DNA of 64,000 bases from Escherichia coli (GCF_048403405.1 NZ_CP183129.1), one strand, 5' to 3'. Shown: positions 54,790 to 63,700, counted from the first letter of the stretch. The notes: generated from the letters alone by a model not told the origin. Numbers and translations are program-made.

Positions 54790-55359
54790 GTGAGCCGATT
54801 CATCCCTGTCGAATTACACCATGCCAGCCGTCTGTTAAATCATGGCCCAACTGTCTTGATCACCAGTTTCGATGAGCAATCCCAGCGGCGTAACATTATG
54901 GCAGCCGCCTGGTCAATGCCGGTGGAGTTTGAACCGCCACGCGTGGCGATTGTGGTAGATAAATCGACATGGACCAGGGAGTTGATTGAACGTAATGGTA
55001 AGTTTGGCATCGTTATCCCGGGTGTTGCAGCAACTAACTGGACGTGGGCGGTGGGAAGTGTGTCGGGGCGTGATGAAGATAAGTTTAATTGCTATGGTAT
55101 TCCGGTTGTGAAAGGTCCGGTGCTTGGTTTGCCGCTGGTCGAGGAAAAATGTCTGGCGTGGATGGAGTGTCGCCTGCTACCTGCAACTTCCGCGCAAGAA
55201 AAATACGATACGCTATTTGGCGAAGTGGTATCTGCAGCGGCAGACGCACGAGTATTTGTCGAAGGCCGCTGGCAGTTTGATGATGACAAACTCAATACGT
55301 TGCATCATTTAGGTGCTGGCACGTTTGTTACCAGCGGCCAGCGTGTTACGGCAGGTTAA
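54790..55359 (+). CDS. yddH: Flavin reductase-like protein YddH
   Basis: 189 aa. Confidence 0.85.
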   Translation: MSRFIPVELHHASRLLNHGPTVLITSFDEQSQRRNIMAAAWSMPVEFEPPRVAIVVDKSTWTRELIERNGKFGIVIPGVAATNWTWAVGSVSGRDEDKFNCYGIPVVKGPVLGLPLVEEKCLAWMECRLLPATSAQEKYDTLFGEVVSAAADARVFVEGRWQFDDDKLNTLHHLGAGTFVTSGQRVTAG

Positions 55360-55362
55360 GCA

Positions 55363-55590
55363 TTACATGCTGTAACCGGGTTTCTTTATCAAAGCCTCCA
55401 TTTGGGGCTCGATTTCGGCATCCCAGATAGCTTGCCAAGATTCTGGTTGAATCTGCTGTAGAGAAATGCTTATCGAGCTATCTTTACTGTTCAGATGGCG
55501 AATAATAACGTCGGTAATATCTGCAGCGAGTGCTGCTTTTTGTTGTTCGTCCAGTTCACGCGGAAAACATTTAATGTCTATGTGCGGCAT
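55363..55590 (-). CDS. pptA: Tautomerase PptA (4-oxalocrotonate tautomerase family, Pro1 after Met)
   Basis: 75 aa from [17 protein letters not shown]…. Confidence 0.85.
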
Positions 55591-55895
55591 GATTGTGCTC
55601 CTTTTGAAAGATGTCAGTAAAATTAACACACGTTGTGAATGTCGTGTGTCCGGTAATGCGTTTTTACGGCAATAATGCCTACTTGAAATTGTACATATTT
55701 GTACTACACACTTTTAAATAAAGCGCCAATGAAAACGTTAACTTGCAGAATATATTCTTCGCCAACATGCCATTAAGAAAACATCAAGTTCCCGGCTTGC
55801 CAATTGGTTAACGCCCATTATAGTTATTCTTGCCCTCACTAAAAATTTTCATCCGTAATTACCCCCAATAAAAATCCATTCTGGAGACGCTTAAG

Positions 55896-57872
55896 ATGCA
55901 GCTTAATCATATCGTTAAAAGTCTGCTAATAACGGGATTATTCACCACCAGTTCTTTACCTCTCCTCGCGGCGGAAGCTCCTAAAGACGCCACCGCAGCC
56001 ACGCAACAAGCAAACAATTTACTCTACAACCAGTTGCCGTTTGCCGATAACACTGACTTTACTGATGCCCATAAAGGTTTTATTGCCCCTATCCCTCAAG
56101 ACGTGATTAAGGGCGAACAAGGGAATGTTATCTGGGATCCACAACATTACGCTTTTATCAAAGAAGGCGATAAAGCCCCTGATACGGTGAATCCGAGTTT
56201 ATGGCGTCAGGCGCAACTGATAAATATCAGCGGGTTATTCGAAGTAACTGAAGGTGTCTATCAGATTCGCAATCTCGATCTATCAAATATGACCATCATT
56301 GAAGGCAAAGAGGGTATTACCGTCGTTGATCCCCTTGTTTCAGCAGAAACAGCCAAAGTGGGTATGGATCTCTATTACAAAAATCGCGGCAAAAAACCGG
56401 TAGTGGCGGTTATCTATACACACAGTCATGTCGATCACTACGGTGGTGTTCGTGGCGTAATTGATGAAGCTGACGTTAAATCAGGCAAAGTTAAAATCTA
56501 TGCGCCAGCCGGATTTTTGGAGGAAGCCGTTTCCGAAAACATCATGGCTGGCAATGTTATGAGCCGACGAGCCAGTTATATGTATGGCAACTTATTGAAA
56601 CCTGATGTTAAAGGCCAGGTGGGGGCTGGACTGGGAACGACTACTTCAGCAGGAACAGTCACGTTGATTGCTCCTACTAACTACATCACCAAAACCGGAC
56701 AAAAAGAAACTATTGACGGGTTGACTTATGATTTCCTGATGGCGCCAGGTTCTGAAGCGCCTTCTGAAATGCTGTGGTTTATTGAAGAAAAGAAACTGAT
56801 CGAAACCGCTGAAGATGTCACGCACACCCTTCATAACACCTATTCGCTGCGTGGGGCTAAAATTCGCCAACCGCTGCCGTGGTCAAAATATATTAATGAA
56901 GCTCTCAATTTGTGGGGTGATAAAGCCGAGATTATTCTCGCTCAACATCACTGGCCAACCTGGGGCAACGATAACGTGGTCAAACTGCTTAAAAGCCAGC
57001 GTGATTTGTATCGTTACATCAATGATCAAACTCTGCGCATGGCTAATCAAGGGATGACCCGTGATGAAATTGCCGCAAACTTTAAACTGCCCTCTTCACT
57101 GGCTAACACCTGGGCGAATCGCGGCTATTACGGTTCGGTAAGTCATGACGTGAAAGCAACTTACGTGCTTTATCTCGGCTGGTTTGATGGTAACCCCGCG
57201 ACGCTTGATGAACTGCCGCCAGAAGAAGGCGCAAAAAAATTCGTCGAGTATATGGGCGGTGCTGATGCCATTTTACAGAAAGCCAAACAGGATTATGACC
57301 AGGGTAATTTCCGCTGGGTTGCCCAAGTTGTTAGTAAGGTGGTGTTTGCCGATCCAAACAACCAGGCAGCGAGAGATCTGGAAGCTGATGCGCTTGAGCA
57401 GTTAGGCTATCAGGCTGAATCTGGGCCGTGGCGTAATTTCTATCTCACTGGTGCACAGGAATTGCGTAATGGCGTACAAAAATTACCAACACCAAATACT
57501 GCCAGCCCAGACACCGTGCGTGCGATGACGCCGGAGATGTTCTTTGATTATCTTGCCGTCCATATTAATGGTGAGAAAGCGGCAGATGCCAAAACCGTGT
57601 TGAATTTCGATTTTGGTGAAGATGGCGGCACCTATAAAGTGGAGCTTGAAAATGGTGTTCTCAATCATACCGCTGGTGTAGAGGCTTCGGATGCTGATGC
57701 CACTATCACTCTGTCTCGTGATGTATTGAACAAAATTGTACTGAAAGAAGAGACGCTGAAAGAAGCCACGGCCAAAGGAGATGTCAAAATTACTGGCAAT
57801 GAGGAAAAACTCAACGAGCTGTTAGGTTATATGGATAATTTTGAATTTTGGTTCAATATAGTGACACCATAA
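55896..57872 (+). CDS. Periplasmic alkyl/aryl sulfatase (metallo-beta-lactamase fold, SdsA1/YjcS-like)
   Basis: 658 aa; signal peptide; metallo-beta-lactamase HxHxDH motif (YTHSHVDHYGG); C-terminal SCP2-like region. Confidence 0.8.
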   Translation: MQLNHIVKSLLITGLFTTSSLPLLAAEAPKDATAATQQANNLLYNQLPFADNTDFTDAHKGFIAPIPQDVIKGEQGNVIWDPQHYAFIKEGDKAPDTVNPSLWRQAQLINISGLFEVTEGVYQIRNLDLSNMTIIEGKEGITVVDPLVSAETAKVGMDLYYKNRGKKPVVAVIYTHSHVDHYGGVRGVIDEADVKSGKVKIYAPAGFLEEAVSENIMAGNVMSRRASYMYGNLLKPDVKGQVGAGLGTTTSAGTVTLIAPTNYITKTGQKETIDGLTYDFLMAPGSEAPSEMLWFIEEKKLIETAEDVTHTLHNTYSLRGAKIRQPLPWSKYINEALNLWGDKAEIILAQHHWPTWGNDNVVKLLKSQRDLYRYINDQTLRMANQGMTRDEIAANFKLPSSLANTWANRGYYGSVSHDVKATYVLYLGWFDGNPATLDELPPEEGAKKFVEYMGGADAILQKAKQDYDQGNFRWVAQVVSKVVFADPNNQAARDLEADALEQLGYQAESGPWRNFYLTGAQELRNGVQKLPTPNTASPDTVRAMTPEMFFDYLAVHINGEKAADAKTVLNFDFGEDGGTYKVELENGVLNHTAGVEASDADATITLSRDVLNKIVLKEETLKEATAKGDVKITGNEEKLNELLGYMDNFEFWFNIVTP

Positions 57873-57886
57873 ATTTACTGCATACC

Positions 57887-57909
57887 GGGCAGGTATCCTG
57901 CCCTTTTTT
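57887..57909 (+). terminator. Rho-independent terminator after the alkyl sulfatase gene (gggcagg/cctgccc plus tttttt)
   Basis: Read directly. Confidence 0.7.
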
Positions 57910-57918
57910 GGTTAAAAA

Positions 57919-59016
57919 ATGGCTGAACGAAGAAAAACGCATCACTCATGGAAAACCCGCCGCGATATGGTTATTCGCGGCATGACGATTAGTTTGCCAT
58001 GGTTTGCTTTTATCAATGTCAGTTTTGCATTGATAATTTTGCTGCGCCGTGTTCTGTTTAATGACCTTACTCCACCCTGGTTAAATGAAAAAAGCCTTAT
58101 ACATTCTATTGATATATCTGCAACGGGTATTCTGCTGATTTGCAGTGGTTTACTACTCATCCCTCGGCAAAAAACATTACCTATCCAGGTGCTATTAGTT
58201 GCCCTGAGCCTGCTATGGTCATGGTGTAGTTATCACTTTATTGCGTACTGGACGCTGCAGTTTGCTTATCCACTATGTGTATTATTAATGCTTAGTGGCG
58301 TTGTCGCACTTTATTTCCATACCCCATCATTGCTCGCATTTGTCATTCCCTTATGGTTCACCACTCCAATAGCGAGTCTTATGCTTAATCAACAGATCAA
58401 TATTCATTTTGCTGTTGTATGGTGTATTTTTTCACTGGCGCTATATGGTGGGCGACTCATTTTGTTACGTTGGTTTGAAGAAGCATGGGTACAAAACAGT
58501 TATAACAACCAGTTAATTAATCGCCTTGATGCATTAGCACATCGTGATCCTTTAACTGGGATAGCAAACCGACGTGCAATGAACAGTATCTTACACGACG
58601 CGATGGATAACGGCGGGTCATTTGCTCTTATTATGCTGGATGTCGATTTTTTTAAACGTTACAACGACACTTACGGGCATCCTGCTGGGGATCGTTGTCT
58701 AATACAAGTTGCCGACGCTCTACAGCGTTCAACTCGCCAGTCGGAGGATGTTGTTGTCCGTTATGGTGGCGAAGAGTTTGCCATCATACTTTTTAATGCA
58801 ACATTGCCGGAAGCAGAGACGGTAGCAGCCAGAGTGAAGCAAGAACTTAAACTGGCAGCTATCCCACATCAGGCATCTGCTGTTAATGCATTTGTTACGG
58901 TTAGTCAGGGGATTACCTGTTCTGCTCCCGCAAAAACGGCTGAACAAATTATTTCAGATGCCGACGCTGCGTTATACCGGGCGAAAGAAAGTGGGCGAAA
59001 TCGATGGGCTTTATAA
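57919..59016 (+). CDS. Membrane-anchored GGDEF diguanylate cyclase; start codon uncertain (could be the internal MVIRGMTISL)
   Basis: Several N-terminal TM helices and a C-terminal GGDEF domain with an intact RYGGEEF active site. Confidence 0.8.
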   Translation: MAERRKTHHSWKTRRDMVIRGMTISLPWFAFINVSFALIILLRRVLFNDLTPPWLNEKSLIHSIDISATGILLICSGLLLIPRQKTLPIQVLLVALSLLWSWCSYHFIAYWTLQFAYPLCVLLMLSGVVALYFHTPSLLAFVIPLWFTTPIASLMLNQQINIHFAVVWCIFSLALYGGRLILLRWFEEAWVQNSYNNQLINRLDALAHRDPLTGIANRRAMNSILHDAMDNGGSFALIMLDVDFFKRYNDTYGHPAGDRCLIQVADALQRSTRQSEDVVVRYGGEEFAIILFNATLPEAETVAARVKQELKLAAIPHQASAVNAFVTVSQGITCSAPAKTAEQIISDADAALYRAKESGRNRWAL

Positions 59017-59089
59017 GCATTAGGGGACTGGACAGATTACGTCTCTCCTCGCTTAACAAGGGCTGACGGAGGGTAATAATTGTCTATAG

Positions 59090-59641
59090 CTATCTTCTTA
59101 GCGATGTCTTTCTGGTATCACATTGGATCGGTGCAATTATTTTTCCTTTAATACCCATTATGTTAAGAAATTCAGAAACAGCTGTAATCTCATTGTTTTT
59201 TTCATTCGTCTTGATCTTACAAGGAATCTGACTGTGCATTATTGAGAACACACTAATAACGTGAATCGCTCCCTTGCGACGACTCTTGTCATAAGAGTAC
59301 CGGAGCGTTTTTCCATCAATTGCAATGACGTCTTTATCATCTGAAGAATGGCAGTCAAGCATCCAGTTAATAAAGCACTCATGAAATTTTTCAGGACTGA
59401 TACAGGATACAACTCTGGCAATGGTATCGTGAACAGGAATACCATTATCAAAATCACCATATTGCTTCAAAAAATCGAGATGTGTTTCCCCAAAATCCTC
59501 TATATCTTCCCAGCCTTCTGCACCCGAAATAACGGCACAAATAGTCAACAGTAGAATATCCGATAATTTATGTTCCACTTTCCAGGCTTGTCTGTAATCG
59601 GGGATAATAGAAATATGTCCCATCAATTTTTTAAGTTCCAT
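59090..59641 (-). mobile_element. H-repeat-associated (ISAs1-family) transposase remnant, N-terminal 183 codons only, frameshifted and truncated
   Basis: [51 protein letters not shown]… matches the conserved H-rpt N-terminus; the DDE catalytic region is absent. Confidence 0.8.
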
Positions 59642-60226
59642 TTTGTTCTCCTTAATTATGTAAGGAGTATTTGATCATGTATACGCAATAAAAAACAGCT
59701 TCAGGTAATGAGGAATATCTCAATTGTTAAACATAAAATGCGAATTGTCTAGTACAAAAAAGCAGCGTTACGTGATCTTTCCGTGGATCGTCAAATTGTT
59801 CGAGAGAAAATACCAACATGATGGATTTTACTGTAAAAGTAATGTCGTAGTTTAAAAACTCATCATCCGGTAAAGCCTTGTGGGGCGTGGGCTTTCATAC
59901 TTTTACCCTGATGTCTGCTATACGCCGGACACCCTTTACGTAGCATTCGGAATTCACCCGTAAATTTATCACGGCGGTATCACGAAACCTCCGGTTCTGA
60001 TGCCGCTTAGGACTAACGACACGTCAACACAGGTTCGGGTTTATTCATTTCACTGTATCTCATATAATCTGAGCACTCCCCCTGCGCTCGCTACTATGAC
60101 TCTTTACCACAGCAACCGGGGTTGTTTGGGATCGGCTTTCAACAGCAGATCCCGGTGGCTATTGCAAGTAAGTCTACTTTCCACATCAGTGTTACTGACA
60201 CAGAAAATAATGAGTTATGATCCTTG

Positions 60227-60712
60227 TCATATTTTTAATATAGCCCCATGAGCTATAGGATCAAAACCTTCTAACCATGAGGTGTTTTTATCGAATAATG
60301 CACCTGTTATATTTATATCGCCATATCTATCACATAATAAATTAGCGCCACATAAGTCAGCACCAGAAAAATTTGAATCTTTAACGTCTGCATTGCAAAA
60401 GGTTGAATTAGTTAATATAGCACCCTCAAAGTTTGCACCTATTGACCTTGAATTACTAAAGTCACTTCCAGTGAAATCTGAGTTATTAAGAATAGCGTTC
60501 ATCAGAGCCGCATTGCGAAAGACAGCATTTCTAGTTGATGTATGTTGAATCATTACATTTCTTAAATGGGAATTTTCAAATTTCGCCCCATCAAGACAAT
60601 AACCATTGAGGATGGCACGATGTAGATCCATCCCGCTAAAATCATATCCAGCAAGAGTGGTACTATCTATATCAAGAAATTTATTGGTTATTAAAAACGC
60701 GATTCTTATCAT
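60227..60712 (-). CDS. Pentapeptide-repeat protein, putative Rhs immunity protein (K-12 ydcD position)
   Basis: 161 aa; tandem A(D/N)(L/F)xx pentapeptides ([25 protein letters not shown] …); start overlaps the Rhs stop by 4 nt. Confidence 0.75.
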
Positions 60713-63700
60713 CTATTCCCCCAATCATCTAACTCCGGAAAAATTTGGCTAAACGGATATAGTGGTGCCGATAATGGACGCGTACCTGGCCGCTCAGGAG
60801 GAAGTTTATCACATAACAGACCCGCAACCATCCTGTGATTACCATTAACAATCACATTCCCATCCATATCAACCGGTGGTGCTCCACTACCATCTTCCAG
60901 CATTTGTACGTAGTGAGCTACTACGGGTACTGAGACTTTTTGTTGTACTGTCAACAAGGGACTGTTGGCCACAACCATCCTGATGTTTTCAGGTGTCGTA
61001 GGTAAACATTTAGTCTTCTCTTGACTAAAGGTATCATCCCACAATTTTGTTAAACCCATCACTGCCTGTTGTCTGTATTTATCCATGGGGTCAGCAATCA
61101 ACCAAGATGGACCTGACTGCTCTATGGAATCTTCTCCGGAGAGACCCAACGGATCTATCTTAGTAGTTGGATTCAATGGATACTGATACAGGTTCCATGC
61201 ACCTCTTAGCCCAATGGGATCCTGGGTGATATACCGCCCCTGCAACGGGTCATAGTACCGGTTGCGGTTATAGTACAGCCCCGACTCCTCATCATACTGC
61301 TGCCCCGGCAGACGGTACGGCTGTTGCAGTTGCTGCGCGCTGGTTTCGCCCAGCAGGTTTCCCCACTCGTCATACTCCCCCTGCCACGCCGTTTCCCCTT
61401 CCGGGCTGATGAGCGCCTGCGGCAGCCCCCGGTGGTCGCAGTGGTAAAGATGAAGTGTCCTCTCCGGGATGTATTCCGCCTCCATCTGGTTTTTCATCTG
61501 TTCCGCCGTCAGCCCGCACTGCTGAAGCCATGCCTCACTCTCCGCACTCACCGCACCCGCGCGCAGTTCCCGCTCCAGCCTCCCCAGCATCACCGACAGC
61601 TCCGCCGGTAGCGTCACCCCCGTGTCCTCCTGCAACACCTCCGCCAGACTCCGGTGCCGCGCCTTCGCCTGTTCACCATTCTCTGTTTCGATTCTGATGA
61701 GCGGCGTGAAGCTCCCCGGCTGGTATACCGTCTGGATACGCGTGGTGCCGGTCTGTACCGTCGTCAGCCTGTCACCGTCCCACCCGTACCAGGTCTCCTC
61801 CGGTTTACGCGACAGCGACATCCACCCCGTCAGGTCACGCTCCCGCCGCCACACCCGTTTCCCCGTCCGGCGGCCCAGCGGGTCATAGAGGTAGCGGCTC
61901 TCCACCTGTGGCTCGCCGTGCTGTATCCGCGTGTAGAACACCAGGCGGTGCTGGCTGTCGTAATGGTAGTGGTGCGTCCGCTCGTCGTGCATCCGTATCA
62001 CCCCTTCCGGGATACGGTCCGTCTTCTCCGCCAGCCTGCCGTATTCATCGTAGCGGTAGACATAGTGCGCATCTTCCGTGATGCGGTTATCCGGCCACGC
62101 CGTGAAGGTGCTGTCCGGGTGCAGTTCCGGGTCCGGCAGCCGGTTTCCTGCCGGGTCCGTCGCATACGGGATATCGATATCCAGGTTCGCCGCCGTGGTG
62201 TGAACGCCCGTCAGTCTTCCCGTGTCGCTGTAACGGTACTTCCGGCTCTCCTGCGGGCCGCTGATGCGCACCAGTTGCCCGTTATCGTTCCACGTATACT
62301 CACGGTCAAGCTGCGGAAGGTTCAGGTGCCTGCTCCGGAGCTGCCCTGTGAGGGTGTACGCCGTGGCCTGTTCGTACCCCGCTGTACTGCCCGCCCCGCC
62401 GAAGCTGCGGGCCGTCTCACGGTGCAGCCGGTCCCGCGTGTACTCGACCAGCGGCGTTCCGCCCAGCTTCATCCCCGCAAGATAACCGCTGCCATACGTC
62501 AGCCACTCCACCGGCGGCAGACCGTCCGGCTCCTGACGGGTCGCCAGCCCCTGTTCGCTGTAGACGTGCCTCGTCTCATGCTCCCACAGCATCTCCCCCG
62601 TCTCCTGGTTCTCCACCGTCTGCCGTTCGCCCGTCAGGCGGCCTTTATCGTCATAGCCGTAGTGGACCGCCACACGGTGGCCTTCGCTCAGGTGGCTGAT
62701 TTCTGTCAGCCAGCCGTGGTCGTCATACTGCCACTGCTCCGCCGGGTCGCCGTTCACCGTCCGGTGCGTGATGCGCCCGGCGTCATCGTAGTACCACTGC
62801 GTGACCTGCCCCTCATCCTCGCTGCGGATGAGCTGCCCTGTGGCGCTGTACCGGTAACGCTGTGTCCTGCCGTCAAAGCCGCGCTGCTCCGTCAGCCTGT
62901 CCACCGGGTCATACCGGAACGTGGACTGGCTGCCGTTCTCGTTGGTCAGCACGGTGATGCGCCCGGCGGCGTCATACTCCATGCTGCGCGTCAGTCCGCC
63001 CTGCGTGGTGCTGACGGCCTTTCCCCACGCATCATACTGTGTCTCACTCCGGCTGCCGTTCGGGGCAATGATAGCGGTGAGGTCGCCTGCGGCGCTGTAC
63101 TCATAACGGGTTTCACGTCCCTGCGCATCCTTCTGACTGACCAGTTGACCACGCGGGTTATAACTGCTGTAAGTGCTGATGCCTTCCTCCCGGTGAACCG
63201 CCGTCCTCTGACCGTACCGGTCGTATTCATACCGCGTCGTGTACCCTGAACAGTCCGTAAATGCCTGAAGCTGACCGTACCGGTTTCGCGTTATTCTCCG
63301 CCTCACCCCGGTTCCGTCTTCCACCGCACAGGGCAGGCCACTGCGGGAAGAATCATAAAACCAGCGCGTAATGTTACCGTTGCGCGAGACCTCTTCCGCC
63401 AGCCTGCCCTGACGGTCATATTTCCGGCTGCGGCGCAGCCCGTCCGGGTACGTCACTGACGTCAGTTGCAACTGGTTGTTGTAACCATACCGTACCGTCC
63501 TGCCGTCCGGCAGTATCACTGAAGTCAGCTTTCCCGACGCCATATGCAGCCGGTACTCCGTCCGCCGTCCCGCCGCATCCGTCTGCGCCTTCAGCCTCCC
63601 CGCCTCATCATACTCGCTGCGGGTGATGCTCCCGTCCCCATACTCCTTCTTCACCACCCGCTTCAGGCCGCCCTCGCCCTCCGTGTACAGCACCTCCCGC

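Follow-up and report, generated by a model that had tools for sequence, protein, structure and literature searches.

Genes at the locus

The window, a stretch of 64,000 nucleotides, is E. coli chromosome and matches several E. coli chromosomes at 100%. On its conserved left flank lies pptA, the gene of a tautomerase (55363..55590, minus strand, as annotated by RefSeq in an identical record), beyond which come the genes of an alkyl sulfatase and a membrane-bound GGDEF cyclase. Both identities, together with an intact GGEEF motif, had been proposed in a sequence-only reading of this DNA, and the open reading frames and their Pfam matches bear them out. Hundreds of E. coli genomes in RefSeq already carry both genes as annotated features, and the locus is an ordinary one. 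The two-gene segment is carried by 438 (~8%) of the 5426 complete E. coli genomes. K-12, as the same reading had stated, lacks it: K-12 is collinear with the window through pptA up to 55679, and the H-rpt gene ydcC adjoins pptA there, with neither sulfatase nor cyclase.

The first gene (55896..57872, plus strand) encodes, to judge from Pfam and PDB matches, a 658-aa type III alkyl/aryl sulfatase of the metallo-beta-lactamase fold, predicted to be exported. Pfam finds Lactamase_B (1.1e-16) and, over the full models, Alkyl_sulf_dimr (1.3e-62) and Alkyl_sulf_C (3.1e-44), and the zinc-binding HxHxDH motif reads HSHVDH at residues 176-181. The protein aligns over its full length with 7tl5, 4nur, 4pdx, 2yhe and 2cfu; the closest PDB match is 7tl5 (an unnamed structure, 80% identity), and PSdsA (4nur) and E. 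coli YjcS (4pdx) are matched at E=0 and 9e-210. With SdsA1, PSdsA, YjcS and Pisa1 (PDB 2cfu, 4nur, 4pdx, 2yhe) it shares a three-domain architecture, composed of a metallo-beta-lactamase catalytic domain bearing HxHxDH, a dimerisation domain and an SCP2-like C-terminal domain. YjcS of K-12 is a paralogue, encoded at another locus. At the N-terminus, MQLNHIVKSLLITGLFTTSSLPLLAA followed by EAP resembles a Sec signal; alignments to the solved homologues begin at residue 26-29, and the constructs that were crystallised start near residue 26. We infer a Sec-exported, zinc-dependent enzyme of the SdsA1/YjcS/PSdsA type, which would convert alkyl sulfate esters to alcohol and sulfate in the periplasm. 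A dN/dS of 0.03-0.09 indicates purifying selection on the gene. Upstream, a consensus scan gives a candidate sigma-70 promoter (55797..55824, plus strand; TTGCCA-16-TATAGT, 10 of 12 consensus positions matched).

The second gene (57967..59016, plus strand) encodes a MASE5-GGDEF diguanylate cyclase of 349 aa when the RefSeq start is used, an assignment based on Pfam and on alignment with homologues. The longest open reading frame runs from 57919 to 59016 and would give 365 aa; 14 homologues all have the methionine of 57967, and where their frame is likewise extended they also keep a tryptophan seven residues upstream of it. MASE5 (PF17178) is matched at positions 2-192 of 192 (E 7.5e-44) and GGDEF at positions 1-161 of 161 (E 1.9e-48). 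About six hydrophobic, putatively transmembrane segments lie between residues 21 and 184, and the protein would be an enzyme of the cytoplasmic membrane in which these six or so helices make up the MASE5 sensor. GGEEF is intact at residues 283-287 of the 365-aa form, and the D-x-D-F-K, N, D and K/R positions of the GGDEF domain are invariant in the 14 homologues. The domain should be catalytically competent, making c-di-GMP in response to a membrane-borne signal. The cyclase has no canonical I-site, the optional RxxD five residues ahead of GG(D/E)EF that marks the product-inhibited subclass. The region reads R-Q-S-E-D-VVVRY-GGEEF, with R at -10, Q at -9 and D at -6; this RxxxD is conserved throughout the MASE5 family alignment, and because it occupies the I-site position, canonical I-site feedback is probably absent from the enzyme.

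It could be argued that the cyclase is a remnant in decay or without enzymatic activity, either an incipient pseudogene or a degenerate GGDEF domain that works through protein contacts alone. The locus is prone to deletion, some genomes carry truncated or IS1-interrupted copies of the gene, the neighbouring Rhs insertion has altered its last two codons, and the I-site is non-canonical. We nonetheless consider decay very unlikely, since the gene has an unbroken reading frame and a GGDEF match over the whole model, GGEEF and the conserved residues of the domain are invariant in the family alignment, and a dN/dS of 0.19 against E. whittamii points to purifying selection.

Identity of the cyclase and its relation to the sulfatase

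We take the MASE5 cyclase of the window to be DgcY, a published cyclase of the E. coli pangenome. DgcY is said to have been described by Povolotsky and Hengge in 2016 as the second non-K-12 membrane diguanylate cyclase of that pangenome, and it shares with the window protein the character of a membrane GGDEF cyclase absent from K-12. The identification is made by elimination. No MG1655 counterpart of a MASE5-GGDEF protein appears in the table of PMC7232144, and the other candidate, DgcX of EAEC and O104:H4, combines a MASE4 domain with an intact RxxD I-site (PMC4287979, PMC10459773); with MASE5 in no K-12 protein and DgcX a MASE4 protein, the window cyclase should be DgcY, and probably is. DgcX resembles it in being an extra membrane-bound GGDEF cyclase with intact GGEEF in a minority of E. 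coli strains. However, DgcX adjoins lambdoid prophages, whether at attB or elsewhere, and is considered a product of horizontal transfer (PMC4287979, PMC10459773), in contrast to the fixed chromosomal position and vertical inheritance of the window cyclase. DgcX was thus ruled out as the identity of this protein, being a prophage-associated MASE4 cyclase with RxxD as against a MASE5 cyclase with RxxxD and no prophage. The cyclase has a fixed position in the nar-ansP region, in which the RefSeq annotation shows no prophage.

The genomic contexts of sulfatase and cyclase homologues were taken from exact-protein look-ups. MASE5-GGDEF proteins of Enterobacter, Lelliottia, Leclercia, Pantoea, Salmonella and Hafnia are 48-55% identical to the cyclase over their full length and have its architecture, with both RxxxD and GGEEF. 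The promoter of a MASE5-GGEEF gene of Pantoea sp. YR343 is induced in biofilm and on roots (PMC8294551). Equating the Salmonella homologue P0102 (50% identity) with STM4551, a cyclase already studied, was set aside, as the published catalytic mutant is E267A and the GGEEF of P0102 lies at 271-275. A scan of contigs with the cyclase protein gave, among the matches listed, only unrelated GGDEF proteins that share generic peptides (YGGEEFAI, MLDVDFFK).

The sequence-only reading had placed a strong terminator between the sulfatase and cyclase genes, and such an element is found at 57887..57909 (plus strand): a 7-bp stem with 6 G-C pairs and a 3-nt loop (GGGCAGG-TAT-CCTGCCC), followed by TTTTTT. 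The fold does not differ significantly from shuffled sequences on its own (z = -1.8); the assignment as an intrinsic terminator of the sulfatase gene follows from the canonical stem, the T-run and their conservation, the hairpin being kept in E. whittamii and also in E. albertii, where no cyclase lies downstream. The sulfatase transcript most likely ends there, and separate transcripts for the two genes are plausible. A consensus scan gave no convincing promoter between the terminator and the cyclase start, so that co-transcription by read-through may occur.

Another way to view the pair is as one functional module, in which the cyclase is expressed by read-through of the terminator, MASE5 senses alkyl sulfates or their long-chain alcohol product, and surfactant leads via c-di-GMP to biofilm. 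The genes lie on the same strand 94 bp apart, with no good promoter match between terminator and cyclase start, E. coli and E. whittamii retain them together, and a membrane-embedded MASE5 would suit the sensing of amphiphiles. However, a canonical terminator separates the genes and is kept even where the cyclase is absent, relatives carry the sulfatase alone or the cyclase alone at the locus, and in Enterobacter the cyclase homologue has an unrelated setting, flanked by tynA and feaB, the 6 kb inspected on each side containing no sulfatase. A single module is therefore improbable in our estimation, and the two genes are probably independent in function. Somewhat more improbable still is the specific proposal that MASE5 cyclase and periplasmic alkyl sulfatase form a surfactant-responsive system in which MASE5 detects alkyl sulfates or fatty alcohol and raises c-di-GMP. 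Were it true, MASE5 would gain its first proposed class of ligands, and carrier strains a trait setting them apart from K-12-like strains.

Mobile DNA beside the cyclase and the origin of the pair

Beyond the cyclase lies an Rhs element. By comparison with the Rhs-free allele, its left edge falls at 59008/59009, where the last two codons of the cyclase are replaced (EK* to AL*), and opens with an 82-bp segment (59009..59090) that has no counterpart in that allele. This left junction is present in 343 genomes and also in E. whittamii. Next comes the 5' half of an H-rpt of the ISAs1 family (ISEc1-like; 59091..59782, minus strand), identified through RefSeq, NCBIfam and ydcC homology, with a frameshifted transposase cut at codon 184. 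The remaining frame (59090..59641, minus strand) has 183 codons, as the sequence-only reading had noted for this side of the pair; it matches the NCBIfam model transpos_ISAs1 at positions 1-142 of 314 (9e-50), and RefSeq annotates it as frameshifted and without its C-terminus. DNA homology to K-12 ydcC spans 59091-59760 at 91% and ends at ydcC codon 184. The element retains its left terminus, near 59782, but neither its right half nor its right terminus. The H-rpt copy near the cyclase is a truncated relic and not an intact insertion sequence. The full-length copies set beside it match it at 89-92.5%, lower than the 93-96% seen between those genomes in the core DNA of the flanks.

Farther on, RefSeq annotates a pentapeptide-repeat gene (60227-60712, minus strand) and the Rhs core gene (60709-64000, minus strand), which continues past the end of the window. 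A Pfam search with the C-terminal tip of the Rhs protein gave no match. In an identical genome the insertion ends ~2.9 kb past the window, beside a yncG pseudogene; the inserted DNA is a 7.9-kb Rhs/H-rpt element between the last two codons of the cyclase and the stop of yncG. The RhsE element of K-12 occupies the same site, between yncG and pptA, and has a related Rhs core. Unlike RhsE, however, the window element keeps a full-length core, whose C-terminal tip differs, and downstream of it a pentapeptide-repeat gene. The H-rpt nearest pptA is also reduced to its 5' half in the window, where, unlike in K-12, sulfatase and cyclase are retained.

The absence of the pair from K-12 had earlier been read as an insertion of sulfatase and cyclase between pptA and the Rhs element, with an H-rpt-mediated rearrangement junction near 59017..59100. 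Two real discontinuities lie close to that position, the Rhs insertion edge at 59008/59009 and the H-rpt truncation at 59090/59091. The proposed junction is thus half right. The truncation is internal to the element, corresponds to no IS terminus, and is shared with E. whittamii, which makes it old; junctions exact to an H-rpt terminus do occur, in genomes that have lost the sulfatase and cyclase.

Nor does the distribution of the genes agree with their having been inserted. In Rhs-free E. coli (strain XDL type) the order is pptA-sulfatase-GGDEF-yncG-ansP with no mobile DNA, and the junction of cyclase and yncG is found in 87 genomes. E. whittamii has pptA-sulfatase-GGDEF, E. albertii pptA-sulfatase without the cyclase, Citrobacter sedlakii yddH-sulfatase-yncG-ansP, and another enterobacterial relative yddH-MASE5-GGDEF-yncG, with cyclase and no sulfatase. 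Nucleotide identity of the two genes tracks that of flanking core genes in comparisons with E. coli XDL, E. whittamii, E. albertii and C. sedlakii. Presence in the same slot and divergence in step with the flanks together imply that the Rhs/H-rpt element was inserted and that K-12 underwent a deletion.

We therefore weighed horizontal insertion of the pair by an H-rpt-mediated rearrangement against ancestry. K-12 lacks the pair, as do 92% of complete E. coli genomes; one of its edges bears an H-rpt remnant; and the G+C content of the genes (43-46%) is below the 52% of the nar-pptA flank. Low G+C would fit a foreign origin, but one older than the Escherichia-Citrobacter split. Set against insertion are the occupation of the same slot without mobile DNA in Rhs-free E. 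coli, E. whittamii, E. albertii, C. sedlakii and the further relative, a divergence that matches that of the flanks, sulfatase fragments that remain in genomes lacking the genes, and mobile DNA on one side only, at an internal truncation of H-rpt rather than at its terminus. Repeats flanking the pair, sought as a sign of insertion, were only short matches at chance level. A recent transfer from E. coli to the outgroups clashes with identities of 77-92% that track the flanks. Insertion is thus extremely unlikely, and sulfatase and cyclase are very probably two independent genes of the ancestral Escherichia yddH/pptA-yncG interval that were deleted in K-12 and in most other lineages.

On the ancestral reading, the 7.9-kb Rhs element with its H-rpt copies would have entered later, between the convergent ends of cyclase and yncG, after which the H-rpt copy nearest the cyclase would have lost its 3' half, a state common to the window and E. 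whittamii. As the Rhs junction occurs in both E. coli and E. whittamii and some E. coli are Rhs-free, ancestral polymorphism or recombination between species is required. Between two E. coli lineages dS is 0.010 for the cyclase and 0.076 for the sulfatase, an inequality that marks the region as a recombinational mosaic.

Losses in other lineages

The direction of the event is thereby corrected: K-12 has the derived, deleted state, and absence from K-12 need not mean insertion elsewhere. Relative to K-12, carrier strains, among them ST405 and ST69 isolates, have one more predicted source of c-di-GMP and a second predicted alkyl sulfatase, which could matter when strains are compared for biofilm or detergent tolerance. 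Beyond such bookkeeping the significance is small, the genes being routinely annotated and the sulfatase having close solved homologues.

The K-12-type deletion has its breakpoint at 55679..55680, 89 bp upstream of the pptA ATG, where the intact right terminus of the H-rpt ydcC abuts in K-12; 2375 of the 5426 genomes share this junction. A second class, found by genome comparison in 84 genomes, breaks at 55965..55966, where the terminus of a full-length H-rpt adjoins the retained sulfatase codons 1-23. Scars of the sulfatase gene persist as codons 1-23 in L003-type genomes and as codons 620-641 in SM107-type genomes. Across the 5426 genomes, homology on the pptA side ends at seven points, one belonging to the full-length class and six to truncated classes (55965, 55823, 55679, 55640, 55419 and 55377), and in three junction classes the identical H-rpt terminus, CAGGG(C/A)AAGATTACGAAAG, abuts the remaining DNA. 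Events at H-rpt termini would have removed variable stretches towards pptA in other lineages, giving rise to the K-12 arrangement and several others; as to the exact pathway at the pptA side, we infer that the DNA was lost through adjacent deletions or, alternatively, that H-rpt copies inserted anew and then recombined with one another. With six truncated end-points, three of them at the same intact H-rpt terminus, the pptA-yncG interval is a recurrent deletion hotspot, and these terminus junctions are indirect evidence of past activity of these ISAs1-family elements in natural E. coli.

Ancestry of the sulfatase and cyclase genes

The window is chromosomal E. coli DNA. The 7.5 kb around the sulfatase-cyclase pair is 100% identical to several complete E. 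coli genomes, and we used the RefSeq annotation of one of them, strain 4621 (NZ_CP103479), together with the ORF list of the window, to establish gene order. The order begins with narZYWV, yddE, nhoA and yddH, after which comes pptA (55363-55590, minus strand). It is followed by genes for an alkyl/aryl sulfatase (55896-57872, plus) and a GGDEF protein (57967-59016, plus, with the longest ORF from 57919), an ISAs1-family transposase pseudogene (59090-59641, minus), and genes for a pentapeptide-repeat protein (60227-60712, minus) and an Rhs core protein (60709 onward, minus). This agrees with the sequence-only reading, which had placed the pair between pptA and the H-rpt/Rhs element, and the K-12 map given there matches MG1655, where the intact H-rpt gene ydcC adjoins pptA, followed by yncI, ydcD and rhsE; neither the sulfatase nor the GGDEF gene was found at the pptA-rhsE locus of MG1655.

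The same reading, however, took the pair to be an insertion, and here the comparisons reverse it. Of the 5426 complete E. coli genomes, 438 carry the two-gene segment (55640-59089). An XDL-type allele (87 genomes) has the order pptA-sulfatase-GGDEF-yncG-ansP-yncE, in which no Rhs or H-rpt was found at the pptA-yncE locus and the stop codons of the cyclase gene and yncG directly abut. The same slot holds pptA-sulfatase-MASE5-GGDEF in E. whittamii, pptA-sulfatase in E. albertii, yddH-sulfatase-yncG-ansP in Citrobacter sedlakii and yddH-MASE5-GGDEF-yncG in a further enterobacterial relative. In every comparison the nucleotide identity of both genes tracks that of narW, nhoA, yddH and other flanking genes (for the sulfatase, 96% against flanks of 83-95% in E. 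whittamii, 86% against 79-88% in E. albertii, and 80% against 77-83% in C. sedlakii), and dN/dS values of 0.03-0.19 indicate purifying selection on both. Genomes lacking the genes retain fragments of them: sulfatase codons 1-23 in those of L003 type (homology ending at 55965) and codons 620-641 in those of SM107 type (ending at 55823). Taken together, the Rhs-free allele, the synteny in relatives, the flank-like divergence, the purifying selection and the leftover fragments show that the segment is ancestral rather than inserted. The sole feature against this is the low G+C of the two genes (43-46%, against 52% in the flank), which could reflect an acquisition predating the Escherichia-Citrobacter split. 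Both genes are known and annotated, and there is little new in them.

Over 55896-59013, comparison with E. coli XDL gives a dS of 0.010 for the cyclase but 0.076 for the adjacent sulfatase; the two differ in recent history, which makes the region a recombination mosaic. narV (52023-52703) shares 98% identity with K-12, against only 85% with XDL and 83% with E. whittamii, whereas its neighbours are 94-97% identical to XDL, a pattern that suggests two deeply divergent alleles or a recombination patch. One copy of the segment that has the window-type junction comes from a record described as a plasmid; the replicon may have been mislabelled or misassembled, or the capture may be real. In two other genomes the segment carries an IS1A insertion (H37) or a cyclase truncated after its MASE5 part (H50).

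The Rhs/H-rpt insertion and deletions in other strains

Measured against the Rhs-free allele, the genome to which the window belongs has a 7.9-kb insertion running from 59009 to about 2.9 kb past the window end. Besides the pentapeptide-repeat and Rhs core genes, this comprises an H-rpt remnant and a second H-rpt pseudogene. The insertion falls precisely where the cyclase gene and yncG converge, between their ends, and changes the last two codons of the cyclase from EK* to AL*. Homology of the cyclase-proximal H-rpt to K-12 ydcC runs from 59760 down to 59091, that is, from 119 bp upstream of the start to codon 184; since it stops there, the 59090/59091 junction is an internal H-rpt truncation and not an IS end. 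The junction, found at 99% identity or above in 343 E. coli genomes, is also old, since E. whittamii shares it, together with the 82-bp segment preceding it, and since identity between the remnant and the full-length copies compared is only 89-92.5%. Some 35 bp of the truncated H-rpt are shared with E. whittamii as well. The presence of the junction in E. whittamii while some E. coli are Rhs-free implies either ancestral polymorphism or inter-species recombination. Past the junction, E. whittamii (L005, 11196-13247) has two unannotated genes, of 241 and 263 aa, whose products gave no Pfam match, and then a further H-rpt 5'-end fragment before ansP.

We sampled matches to 55300-56100, spread across genomes, to locate the pptA-side endpoints, and used junction-spanning queries for exact class counts; approximate counts are from the sample. 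Homology ends at seven positions, full length (438 genomes, the window) included: 55965 (84 genomes, L003), 55823 (about 180, SM107), 55679 (2375, the K-12 type), 55640 (about 1100, L094), 55419 (about 500, L095, with pptA lost) and 55377 (about 700, B2-type strains including ATCC 25922). An identical intact H-rpt terminus, CAGGG(C/A)AAGATTACGAAAG, abuts in three of these: the 55679 class (L002, 12884-12963), the 55965 class (L003, 6321-6400) and the 55419 class (L095, 5121-5200). A truncated H-rpt abuts in the 55640 class, and the 55823 class has a sulfatase gene with an internal deletion. The shared intact terminus is the signature of events at IS ends, which could be adjacent deletions, or fresh insertions after which H-rpt copies recombined with each other. 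Thus, the proposal of an H-rpt-mediated junction, which fails for the internal truncation in the window, is sound for deletions in other strains, and the three classes indicate, indirectly, that H-rpt/ISAs1 elements have been active in natural E. coli populations.

A full-model match to Rfam group-II-D1D4-2 (RF01999; 60051-60159, minus; 48 bits, gathering score 36) lies in the interval that separates the truncated H-rpt from the pentapeptide-repeat gene, with no reverse-transcriptase ORF nearby. It resembles what would be left of a group II intron's 5' portion within the Rhs element, and a piece of it (60093-60158) is found next to the sulfatase scar in SM107 too. The C-terminal tip of the Rhs protein (last 196 aa; region 60227-61299, minus) gave no Pfam match, and the gene directly downstream, in the usual immunity-gene position, encodes a pentapeptide-repeat protein of 161 aa, whose Qnr/MfpA/HetL-like matches are weak. 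If this is a DNA-mimic-type immunity protein, that would be a hint that the toxin's target binds DNA.

Properties and independence of the two gene products

The 658-aa protein has the three type III alkyl sulfatase domains (Lactamase_B, Alkyl_sulf_dimr and Alkyl_sulf_C in Pfam), an architecture it shares with SdsA1, PSdsA, YjcS and Pisa1. It carries the zinc motif HSHVDH and a signal-peptide-like N-terminus. Alignments to solved alkyl sulfatases span its full length (80% identity to 7tl5; E=0 with PSdsA, 4nur; 9e-210 with E. coli YjcS, 4pdx; also Pisa1, 2yhe, and SdsA1, 2cfu), and the crystallised homologue chains begin at about its residue 26. From this close homology to characterised enzymes we infer a periplasmic alkyl sulfatase, as originally called.

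Another way to view the pair is as a coupled surfactant-sensing module, for which only the adjacency of the genes speaks. We consider this very improbable, because each gene is found singly at this locus in relatives, because the Enterobacter cyclase homologue (51% identity) is flanked by tynA and feaB and the 6 kb examined to each side of it contain no sulfatase, and because a conserved terminator separates the two genes. This terminator, already noted as strong, is canonical (GGGCAGG-TAT-CCTGCCC, then T6) and is kept not only in E. whittamii but in E. albertii too, which has no downstream cyclase gene, and so belongs to the sulfatase gene. On these grounds we treat the sulfatase and cyclase as independent genes. 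A consensus scan between the terminator and the cyclase start gave no convincing promoter. The start codon itself is ambiguous between 57919 and 57967: the Met at 57967 (the RefSeq start) is invariant in all homologues, yet a Trp seven residues before it is conserved wherever the ORF extends, as it does in many homologues. The ATG at 57919 is only 9 nt past the terminator T-run.

The description of a membrane GGDEF protein with an intact GGEEF site is borne out by matches to MASE5 (7.5e-44) and GGDEF (1.9e-48) and by about six hydrophobic segments, and the usual GGDEF catalytic positions are all invariant across 14 aligned homologues; we treat it as a putative membrane cyclase with a MASE5 sensor. 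The canonical RxxD I-site is absent (RQSED-VVVRY-GGEEF, with Q at the expected arginine position); in its place RxxxD, with R at -10 and D at -6 from GG (58740-58790), is kept across the whole MASE5-GGDEF family. Two membrane cyclases absent from K-12, DgcX and DgcY, were reportedly described by Povolotsky and Hengge in 2016. DgcX, the extra cyclase of EAEC/O104:H4, is ruled out, as it is prophage-adjacent and has MASE4 and an RxxD I-site (PMC4287979, PMC10459773), whereas the window cyclase has MASE5 and RxxxD. MASE5 is present in no K-12 protein (the table in PMC7232144 has no MG1655 counterpart for a MASE5-GGDEF protein), so by elimination the window cyclase is very probably DgcY. The same MASE5-GGDEF architecture is common in homologues from Enterobacter, Lelliottia, Leclercia, Pantoea, Salmonella and Hafnia.
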